A stretch of DNA of 63,132 nucleotides, the filler included, from Sluysia triapertura (taxonomy: Eukaryota): assembly GCA_046118255.1 (NCBI GenBank). It is 5 parts of 5 records of this genome, joined end to end, with 100 filler letters (N's around TTAATTAATTAA, not from the genome) between each part and the next. Parts side by side here need not be neighbours in the genome. Positions count along the whole stretch, not along the records: positions 52,294 to 63,132 come from JBJNIA010192828.1; 4 more parts are not named here. The stretch is one strand, 5' to 3'. Every line of letters starts with the position of its first letter. The first letter of the stretch is position 1. Under the pieces are notes generated by a model. It was not told where the DNA came from, made no database searches, and saw only the letters and a program-made list of their open reading frames with translations. Positions 58,004 to 61,812 of the stretch are shown here, in pieces. Position numbers and translations under genes: made by a program.

Positions 58004-58996
58004 TGTAACGATCTCCAATAAAAGTATTGCAAGTGTTGTCTTAAACTTAAACTTATTCACTGGCAAATTATCTGAGAACTCGGTTCGCCTAATATATACA
58101 TTTATACCGCTGATTGGAGACGTACTATTAGGTTTTCTTAATTATACTTAACTAGCCTTTTTGACTTATGACTTAAGTCTTATTTTTTATATTTAATCGC
58201 TTAAAGTACTTTAATTAATTTATATTACAACCCTTTACTAGGTGTTGTTTAATTAAACTTTTGTATTTTATATTTACGCAACCCGTATTAAGGTGTTTCT
58301 TTACAAAACGAGTTTTAAATTAGTAAATATCAAAAAATCCTTAATGTATATTAACACTACACGAATAAAAAGTAAAACCTACAAAAAATTGCTTATAATA
58401 AAAATAGTATTTTATTCAACAACTCAATCTTAGTTGGTAGTTTTTAAGTATTTTAAGATTTTTCGCAACCCGAATTAAGGTCTTGCATCAAAATAAAAAT
58501 AATTAAAGCATATTTTAGGTTGAAGAATTGAATTGAAAGAAAAAATTTTCTTCTGGACAATAATTATAAAAATCTTCTGGTTGTTTTCTAAATTTTGTTC
58601 TAAAAACTTTATACTAAAACTTACCTATTTATACCTAATTTATTCCAAAATGTCTTCCAAACATCTGAATTGAATCATTTAAACAAATTTAATTTCTTAA
58701 TCTTATTATTATTTAAAAAAATATAAATATTTAAAAATTTTATTAATTTTATTTAATTAATTGATTTCAATTCCATTGTTATTAAAATTATGCTTTTATT
58801 ATTTATTTTATTATTTATAGTTTAATTATAAAATTTTATTGATTTCAATTCCATTGTTATTAAAATTATATTTTAAATATTTGATTTAATATAATAATAT
58901 ATTTAATATAATAATAATAAATATTTAATAATAAAAATTTTACACATTTAAATTACATATTAAACATTAAACACATAAACACATTTAAACCCAACA
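58004..58996 (-). repeat. Candidate 3' LTR (58004-58229 may be a separate short TG..CA unit)
   Basis: Minus strand: GAGGAGAGAAG PPT-like tract (59001-59011), TGTTGGG start at 58996, AT-rich region with a ~31-bp direct duplication (58761/58839), CCAAT then TATAAA near 58100-58117, end GTTACA at 58004. Confidence 0.5.
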
Positions 58997-59079
58997 AATA
59001 CTTCTCTCCTCGGGAAGATTCGTCCACGAATCAACTAATCAAATCATAATCAAATCAAATTATAATCATAATCACATTA

Positions 59080-60495
59080 TTATCGATATCTAATCCAAGT
59101 CAACCGGGTCCTAATCGTCCAGTACGTAATCATAGCGGTATAGCACGAGAGTCTCCTTGTCATCATGGAACTTCTGAGCTGACAGCGGCCGCATTGATCA
59201 TTGGTAACGATTTGATCACTCAAATTTAATGGTGTTGCTACTGAAGACTTCACAATTGATGATGTGATTCGGTGACTCAAATCTGACTGTGTAGCCGTTG
59301 GTGTACTGGTTGTCGAACTTGTGTTAACAGGTTTTGTTAAAGAAGAGATAGAAAAAGAAGAAGAAGGATGAGTGATTTTTATCTTTTTAGGAGGAGAAAT
59401 AGATTGTTAGTGAATAGTAGATTGTGGTTTAAGAAGAGTAGGAGGGGGGTTTACAACGAGATATAAATTGTAAGTCACGCAGCCATTTTCGAACAAGTCG
59501 TCACTGGACAAATGGGAAAAATCAACCGTAGTGTTTGACGCGATTTAAGAAAGGAATCATCATTAGAGAAGGAAATCAAATTGTGGTTGGATAGATTAAT
59601 GATTCCTCTTAAGAGTCCAAAGGGGATATCCAATGATTCAATAAGAGATTTAGGATTTAAGGCTACCAGAATCTTATTGCGTAGAATCCCTATCAATTGG
59701 GGACGGACATCATCGATGTCTTTGGCAAACCTAAGGTCGGTGTCCGTAACAGTCTGAATATTTCTACGGAAATTCTGAATGCGGCAACGAGACTTTATTC
59801 GAGCCTCGGTATGAAACTGACGGCTGTTCGGAGTACAGGTCGCGCAGATCAACTGTGGTTTGTTGAGGCAATCCGTAGCGTATTGAAATTCCACGAACAT
59901 TAGTCGGTCTTCATCATACGCGGATATAGGCTGGACATGTGTATATGATGAACCGTTCTTCCACCGACTCATGTTATCCAAATCCCCCGCGAAAGGAAGG
60001 AAAGAAGAAGAAAAGAGGAGTTTGGGAGGCAAAACAAACAGAAGGGCGATGTATGTTGGAAATTCCATTGCCTCAATCATAACATTACAATCTTTCGACA
60101 ACTCCGAAAGGTGGAGAGTCTATGAACTCTCTAAATGCAGTATTAAAGGGGTATTTTTCATTGTTAGTCTTATTTTAACTGCACTACGAGCGGGCGCTAT
60201 ATAAAGAGTGTTGAAATTCTCGGGTGCGTTGGCTATACCGTGCAATGACACACAAGGTGCTTTTATCGACAAAGGGAAGATGTGGGTTGCCACATTATCC
60301 GTGATATCAGATTTTAATATACAGTCTGCGGCAAAAGAATTATGGAAAAAAGTAGGAGAGGAAATTTCAAGAATTTATCTAGTGAAGTGCAGAAGGATTT
60401 AATCTGATGAATTGTTCTAGCTTTGACTTGTGACTGGTGTGGAATTGGTGTTTGTGTTCTAATGAAAAGAATTACAAGTTTGAAATAATGCTCAT
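59080..60495 (-). pseudogene. Decayed ~470-codon cargo ORF with degenerate DEDDh-exonuclease-like segment
   Basis: GC-richer island, near-continuous minus frame with few stops; homologous to 30641-30943. Confidence 0.6.
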
Positions 60496-60572
60496 AAAAA
60501 TATTCAGTCTATTGATATAATACAAGATAATATTTACGAAATAATTAATGTTGTTTGAGAAAAGGATTTTTA

Positions 60573-61059
60573 CTTAACCGCTCGTTTCTCTTATAAAATT
60601 TTTTGAGTTTGCGTCGTCTATAATTACGCCTTTGCGATTTTGTCAATCCTGGGGGTAATTAGGCTTGGGTACATCAAACCCGTTATACATGATATCAATA
60701 TTTGGTTGATAAATATCAAAACTGGCATTGTCCTGGAGCCCATGATAAGCTACAACAGGAGTTGAGTTAGGTCTAATATACTTAACAGAAAACTCGTAAG
60801 ACCTACGAAATGCTTTTCTATAAAAAATGTCATATTCTGTTATTGTGACTCGACATAGAGGACAAGGAGGTAAATGAGTTAAAGCGGAGTCAAATAAAAA
60901 ATATAGACATCGAAAGTGGAAGTGGTGTTTACAAGGTATTGCTATGGCATAATATTTGTGGATTGGTTTACGGCATATTTAACAAAGCGTAAATTGTAAA
61001 AGTAAAATTTGTGTAATAAGATAATAACTACTTAAAAGAAGTAAAATTAGTTTAAACAT
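60573..61059 (-). pseudogene. RING-H2 finger ORF with hydrophobic N-terminus, disrupted by stops (missed by the ORF track)
   Basis: MFKLILLLLSSYYLITQILLLQFTLC*ICRKPIHKYYAIAIPCKHHFHFRCLYFLFDSALTHLPPCPLCRV gives C3H2C3 spacing. Confidence 0.8.
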
Positions 61060-61812
61060 AGCGCTATGTAGTAGTAAAAGTTTATCCTAATTATATTAAT
61101 AAAATATACTGATAAAACGTATTCCTAACTAATGATTAATACTATGTATGATTTTAATAAAATATGCGTTCCAACACTGTCCTGCCCACAACAGCCGTCA
61201 CACATGGTTAGTAAACAGGGAAATGCTATCATTCATATTTTATACCTTATATAATTTATACTTTAATGAAAAAATGATTTTTATGCCTTATAAATAAATA
61301 AAACTTACGAACTTGAAATACGATGTGCATAGATGAAGTAACGAAAAGAAAATTTAATAAAATGTAATAACTAGATATAGTGTAATATAAATTTATAAAG
61401 GTGGTAAGATGACTTAAGCGTGAATGATTATAAGATTGTAGACTCATATTCTTACTCGGTATAGTGACGTAATTAGTAATTCTAATATTATTTGTAGTTT
61501 TTAGCATTCTTAAAATAGTAGTGGTAGTAACTGGTGATGGATAATTTACAACATCTGGTTTGTCTAAGTAGTGTAGTGTAGCTGAACCCTGATAAAATTA
61601 ATTTTGTTGTGGATTAGTATTAAGAAAAAACCACGTTATATATTTAATAGTGAGTAAACTTGTTTTTGTTATAATAATAATAATTTTTATTAAAATAATA
61701 ATAGTAATAAAAATAATAATGAAAATAAGTGTAATAATTATTATAACAATAATATTAATAAATATTTATATATAAGATTAGTTGTAAAAATGGTAATGCT
61801 ATTATGATTGCG

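Follow-up and report, generated by a model that had tools for sequence, protein, structure and literature searches.

Gene content and 3'-end anatomy of the locus

The window analysed here, a stretch of 63,132 nucleotides (filler included) joined from 5 parts of 5 records of the Sluysia triapertura assembly GCA_046118255.1, contains in its last part (JBJNIA010192828.1) a minus-strand locus at 58004-61620 that resembles the 3' end of a long terminal repeat (LTR) retroelement. Two gene types, one coding for a RING-H2 protein and the other (open reading frame 3, ORF3) for an exonuclease-like protein, are followed by a hairpin, a polypurine tract (PPT) and an LTR-like sequence starting with TG, and a second member of the exonuclease-like family lies elsewhere in the window beside a PPT-like site. 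The copy in the window is dead and broken. The principal features are as follows:

61256-61597, minus strand: ORF1 remnant, 113 amino acids without a stop, matching no family; cargo or not
60643-61059, minus strand: RING-H2 gene (Pfam zf-RING_2) with one in-frame stop between cysteines 1 and 2 and a short hydrophobic N-terminus
59475-60495, minus strand: ORF3 core, an unnamed N-terminal domain and a DnaQ/DEDDh-like domain in which the acidic residues of the active site are absent
59080-59474, minus strand: tail rich in Ser, Thr and Pro, in a different frame and probably terminating ORF3
59036-59074, minus strand: TGATTA-type short tandem repeat
59017-59032, minus strand: hairpin preceding the PPT
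59001-59011, minus strand: PPT, GAGGAGAGAAG
58034-58996, minus strand: putative 3' LTR starting TGTTG, its 3' end uncertain
30605-31366, plus strand: second, very divergent exonuclease-like fragment (tblastn and hidden Markov model, HMM)

The three co-oriented minus-strand ORF remnants described in the first-pass annotation were recovered as stop-to-stop frames at 61597-61256, at 60978-60643 and, for ORF3, at 60374-60120, 60119-59475 and 59406-59080, in the context of a GC island. The window is generally poor in GC (17-33% in most 1-kb bins) and has scaffold gaps; most 200-nucleotide bins of the island at 59001-61000 reach 33-49%, and its flanks have 10-23% (58201-59000) and 14-23% (61601-62800). 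A frame as long as the 214-amino-acid frame of ORF3 arose in none of 300 local block shuffles, and one as long as that of ORF1 in 3 of 1000 local shuffles of a region picked after the fact. The coding-strand skew is alike in the RING and ORF3 frames (C 0.22-0.24, G 0.14-0.16). Spacers below 100 bp, as proposed earlier, are obtained only if stops are read through, but the distance from a stop to the next ATG is about 195 nucleotides between 61256 and 61059 and about 150 between 60643 and 60495. The claim that the array is intronless is supported for ORF3 alone, to which an intact relative aligns without a change of frame over 60350-59502. ORF1 has no match in Pfam, PHROG or NCBIfam, and may or may not be cargo of the element. 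Between it and the RING gene, a GC-rich patch at 61200-61160 on the same strand reads MCDGCCGQDSVG in another frame and may be the frameshifted end of ORF1.

The RING-H2 gene retains all eight ligands of the C3H2C3 arrangement in the pattern C-x2-C-x13-C-x-H-x2-H-x2-C-x14-C-x2-C. With an X placed at the stop it scores 30.5 bits against zf-RING_2 (cut-off 27.3), which bears out its initial identification; without the first cysteine the score is 27.2 bits. Its closest sequence matches in PDB are the RING domains of RNF38 and synoviolin (E about 1e-3), which are host E3 ligases. The N-terminal hydrophobic segment adjoins the first cysteine, is 51% T, and has a best 19-residue Kyte-Doolittle value of 1.88. 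A membrane anchor, as once suggested for this protein, is possible but unsupported, because 160 of the 2103 stop-free 26-amino-acid stretches (7.6%) of this T-rich window are equally hydrophobic.

Just past the last stop the TGATTA-type repeat folds into a stem (z -2.2 for 59080-58990), and it is followed by the hairpin GATTCG-TGGA-CGAATC at 59032-59017, with a perfect 6-bp stem. This hairpin was absent from the first-pass annotation; it is the only such site in the window, and the pattern, which was drawn from this very site, had 0 matches in 100 shuffles. Hairpins in this position before the PPT are known from plant gypsy elements. The purine tract GAGGAGAGAAG at 59011-59001 followed by a TG start at 58996 was found as first described, with four bases between the tract and TGTTG. 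A PPT immediately followed by a 3' LTR that starts with TG is the arrangement of Ty3/gypsy elements, and the spacing is as in the gypsy-linked loci described below. The far end of the LTR is uncertain: 58004, where the first-pass annotation ends, matches the LTR start by only 3 nucleotides, and among 88 CA sites the best inverted match is at 58034 (CAACA, 5 nucleotides), with 58243 and 57436 also matching by 5. No second copy of the putative LTR was found in the window, and an Rfam scan of 56000-63132 gave no match at E 0.1.

A scan of metagenome contigs for the hairpin gave at least 120 matches, and those 120 were analysed with a tract-plus-TG rule fitted to the S. triapertura site, positions 100 nucleotides further on serving as controls. 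Hairpin, tract and TG occurred together at 45 of the 120 listed matches versus 2 of the 120 controls. An upstream frame of at least 120 amino acids was present at 18 of the 45 passing loci; eight of these frames encode gypsy-type RNase H, integrase, SH3, chromo or gag domains, two encode an IQ motif, and eight matched nothing. Among the matches listed, the window's own pol pieces match sequence upstream of 4 of the 39 loci with a purine tract and of none of the 81 others, at least 1.5 kb of upstream sequence being present in 12 of the 39 and 35 of the 81. Viral contigs contained no match to the hairpin pattern. One metagenome contig of 5.1 kb (L060) has hairpin, tract and TG at both 1426-1441 and 3860-3875, 2.4 kb apart, together with a weak gag match, and possibly represents tandem small gag-only LTR elements.

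The exonuclease-like family and its active-site positions

ORF3 is broken by in-frame stops and by a change of frame near 60380; the assignment of the Ser/Thr/Pro-rich stretch as its end is consistent with the tail of the second copy, which is also rich in Ser and Pro. A full HMMER scan returned three matches. P0002 is a protein of 365 amino acids, intact and without a stop (E 5.8e-18, 27% identity over 302 columns), and P0004 is a relative of 176 amino acids; both are singletons, on contigs of 1964 bp and 720 bp respectively. P0003, a bacterial adhesin repeat with a compositional match, was dropped. None of the three has a meaningful match in Pfam. The family itself has no Pfam match (RNase_T included) and corresponds to no named family in the libraries scanned, and a PHROGs scan gave no meaningful match. 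A word-indexed protein search found nothing for the 214-amino-acid frame and nothing among longer proteins, and the profile A1 retrieved only P0002. No relatives emerged from scans of viral (IMG/VR), metagenome and prokaryote genome contigs, and tblastn against phages and plasmids gave only two chance matches (E 1-2). Judged by sequence similarity, the exonuclease-like gene belongs to a real family with two outside relatives and a second copy in the window.

The second copy was found by means of P0002 (30671-30937, plus strand, tblastn E 2.4e-7) and is matched at E 2.5e-15 by a profile built without it; DNA self-comparison missed it because it is too divergent. It is followed by AGAGGGCGGAGAA (31352-31364) and a TG (31365), 415 nucleotides past the conserved core, and its last frame ends in EGGE-stop inside the purine tract. 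By chance, 11% of plus-strand positions have a tract and TG within 600 nucleotides under a loose definition, or 3% under a strict one that would leave out the first copy. After about 20 nucleotides the sequence passes into the interior of a pogo-like transposase (DDE_1). The fragment is adjoined by one copy of an inverted repeat pair (20303-20829 and 30079-30582, 74% identical), whose decayed frame encodes a small Cys cluster. A further weak profile match near 42850-43000 (E 0.07) was set aside as compositional.

In PDB the family profile matches the PolC exonuclease 2p1j best (E 0.0012 and 0.0035), and hhalign against 11 DnaQ-family proteins gave probabilities of 88% and 78% (E 3e-6 and 2e-5, over 59 and 76 columns). 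With a DnaQ HMM, P0001, P0002 and P0004 each scored above 200 of 200 shuffles. Language-model look-alikes, which we treat as leads only, were RNase_T clusters (0.90) and the arenavirus nucleoprotein C-terminal exonuclease (0.88) for the window frame, and reached 0.75-0.76 for P0002 (0.76 for the arenavirus nucleoprotein). A DnaQ-like fold, and with it the label exonuclease-like, is probable, but conservation does not extend to the catalytic residues. The HNAxFD motif of Exo II is replaced in all four members in the aligned register, and in the gapped register of hhalign the D is kept in two of the four, the intact P0002 not being one of them. The D-x-E of Exo I is absent from all three members that cover the region, in a register extended upstream by eye, and no tool aligned Exo III (H...D). 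The catalytic D-x-E / D / H...D residues of a DEDDh 3'-5' exonuclease are not conserved as a set. An ECHC zinc tetrad was likewise not seen, no Cys, His, Glu or Asp being invariant among the four members (alignment A2). Decay alone does not account for the catalytic loss, because in P0002, which is intact, neither D-x-E in its expected position nor the aspartate of HNAxFD is present. As the DEDD catalytic residues are not conserved in the members, we read ORF3 as a DnaQ-fold pseudo-nuclease rather than filing it as a DEDDh exonuclease, and predict that it likely had no nuclease activity.

Assignment of the locus and its surroundings

We propose that the region is a decayed 3' end of a Ty3/gypsy-like LTR retrotransposon or endogenous virus with RING and pseudo-nuclease accessory genes, and regard this composite reading as reasonably probable. 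Taken by itself, the identification as the 3' end of an LTR element is highly probable, and, given such an element, gypsy-type affiliation is a good probability in its turn; the RING gene, likewise, very probably belongs to the element. The original suggestion of a large retroelement carrying several accessory genes is supported in part, by the hairpin, tract and TG and by the second family member at a purine tract and TG; this support does not extend to a large size or to linkage with gag and pol.

Several observations weigh against this proposal. No gag, pol, 5' LTR or target-site duplication linked to the locus was found in the window, and similarity to pol or gag is confined there to 6662-9328; upstream, the window ends (63132) 1.5 kb past ORF1, and a different, dispersed repeat (62329-62836) intervenes. 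No second copy of ORF1 or of the RING gene was found, relatives of the latter being sought in the window and in viral contigs, so both are tied to the element by position alone. In the metagenome comparison the tract-plus-TG rule was derived from the site itself, 10 of the 18 upstream frames are without a retroelement domain, and the passing loci are not independent because many are near-identical copies of one family. The second exonuclease-like copy lacks the hairpin and retains only about 20 nucleotides of possible LTR. The fold match of the family is limited to 59-76 columns around motif II, with motif I in an extrapolated register and motif III unaligned; the second copy exceeded only 199 of 200 shuffles with the DnaQ HMM, and two AlphaFold2 models, with predicted local distance difference test scores of 29.5 and 32.7, were unusable.

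The missing gag and pol would also fit a non-autonomous or chimeric LTR derivative made up of ORF3, PPT and LTR only, with the RING gene and ORF1 having arrived separately as retrocopies or insertions, or a unit that never had gag and pol and was mobilised in trans. Neither RING nor ORF1 precedes the second copy, though it is truncated there, and the gaps of about 150-195 nucleotides between stops and starts point in the same direction. However, every frame points the same way, and those of RING and ORF3 lie in a single GC island with a common coding-strand skew; we consider such a derivative unlikely. We give still less weight to the cassette being cargo of another mobile element or of an endogenised non-retroviral virus (a DNA transposon, Helitron, Polinton-like element or RNA virus) with the tract and TG being fortuitous. 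Viruses commonly carry RING genes, the second copy adjoins a pogo-like transposase, and the likeness of ORF3 to arenavirus nucleoprotein C-terminal exonuclease clusters (0.88 and 0.76, leads only) could be read in this sense. Against it, the hairpin, tract and TG that follow the last frame fit gypsy-type ends, no relatives were found in IMG/VR contigs or phages, and no transposase, Rep/helicase or polymerase frame was seen beside the cassette. Decayed host genes or processed pseudogenes brought together by chance are a very improbable explanation: RING-H2 genes are common in hosts, and in PDB it is host E3 ligases that match best, but ORF3 falls into no named family, each of its two outside relatives is a singleton from a short contig, and the 63 kb contain two broken, highly diverged members, both ending at a tract and TG.

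Elsewhere in the window, a gypsy-type element has left a decayed remnant at 4967-9331 (plus strand), in which a fusion glycoprotein of Monjiviricetes type (Pfam E 1.3e-13 and 7.5e-7) stands immediately before the protease, followed by a reverse transcriptase-like frame (recognised by eye), RNase H and integrase. A tie of this remnant to the cassette, which lies on the opposite strand, was rejected as unshown, as was a tie to the second copy, 21 kb away with a PRDM-like host gene between. Host genes at 14247-19663, 44264-44818 and 53775-54035 (plus strand) and 21993-22430 (minus strand) include a PRDM-like PR domain with C2H2 fingers, a weak Zwilch match, a Ras-family piece and, by eye, a kringle-like stretch. 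These genes, the PRDM-like domain among them, indicate an animal host, conjecturally a flatworm. Remnants of pogo/Tc5-type DNA transposases (DDE_1; HTH_Tnp_Tc5) lie at 31885-32238 and 46330-46857 (plus strand). The repeat at 62329-62836 has a second copy at 43426-43917 (plus strand); the two are 68-77% identical, and the dispersed, non-coding repeat that they represent is C-rich on the plus strand and contains short repeats internally. At 26847-27672 (plus strand), CxxC motifs occur in two short frames that have no Pfam match at E 0.1. A word search of sequencing runs listed one run set (X1), with 71% of the words, and no RNA run.

Relation to known accessory genes and possible function

We envisage that a gypsy-type element of an AT-rich animal bore stand-alone accessory genes between a now-missing pol and the PPT, and that subgenomic or spliced RNAs would have served for their expression. 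The pseudo-nuclease, which by analogy probably binds RNA, would have bound it without cutting, thereby shielding the RNA of the element, exporting or localising it, or serving small-RNA silencing as a decoy. The RING protein might have brought in a host E2 for the ubiquitination of host proteins restricting the element. Viral E3 ligases offer an analogy for such a role, and action of the RING protein in counter-defence is a tentative suggestion, somewhat short of an even chance. A bolder reading is that the locus represents a new animal endogenous retrovirus-like lineage with a 3' counter-defence cassette, in which the RING-H2 protein degrades restriction factors and the dead DnaQ-fold RNA-binder acts against the small-RNA machinery, the family being old and diversified because two very divergent members lie within 63 kb; we regard this as doubtful.

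Extra genes of both kinds have precedents, exonuclease ORF3s being already known from rotifer elements and ubiquitin-related cargo from Burro. In bdelloid rotifers the LTR retrotransposons Juno and Vesta carry a DEDDy exonuclease as ORF3, which occurs also on Athena/Terminon elements and is described as RNase D-like with intact invariant residues (DEED) (PMC5408684). The cassette is similar in probably representing an extra DEDD-superfamily ORF on an invertebrate LTR element; in contrast to the rotifer proteins, for which we compare the published description, its ORF3 matches DnaQ/PolC, on the DEDDh side, without conserved acidic residues, starts with an unnamed domain some 150 amino acids long and has a RING gene upstream. 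The giant gypsy elements Burro/GYPSM1 of planarians have accessory ORFs, including AIR1 with a RING Zn-finger, and MATH, BIR and SUMO-like domains (PMC6431247). Like the cassette, which is probably of gypsy type too, they have accessory ORFs with ubiquitin- or apoptosis-related domains, but in the description drawn on here these lie within or upstream of the polyprotein, and it mentions no DEDD-like ORF or 3' RING-H2 gene. Burro's order of env before protease (PMC6431247) is shared by the remnant at 4967-9331, which is not tied to the cassette.

Disarmed DEDD folds are found in the host proteins Exuperantia, Exd1 and Maelstrom, which lack catalytic residues and bind RNA (bioRxiv 10.1101/2025.08.03.668247; PMC7968707) and offer a model for how ORF3 might act. 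Unlike ORF3, these are host genes, and ORF3 has neither the conserved ECHC tetrad nor a Pfam match to them. The arenavirus nucleoprotein, a virus-borne DEDDh protein among the look-alikes of ORF3, has a C-terminal exonuclease implicated in suppression of host immunity (PMC7968707); it is described as keeping the exonuclease site and a zinc finger and as fused to a nucleocapsid domain, none of which is seen in ORF3. In the full-text literature covered, which took in few subscription papers and neither Repbase nor supplements, no account was found of a catalytically dead DnaQ-type ORF, or of a RING-H2 gene standing alone, ahead of the PPT in an LTR element. A family of dead DEDDh type next to a separate RING gene appears to be a new arrangement.

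Our claim is limited because the window copy is dead and truncated. Catalogues of the accessory genes of invertebrate LTR elements are poor, and roles against silencing have been suggested for these genes rather than demonstrated in the accounts drawn on here. ORF3 adds to these genes a protein family without a name in the libraries scanned. If the proposal is true, a pseudo-nuclease kept on such elements and a dedicated E3 ligase would be two testable candidates for action against host RNA surveillance.

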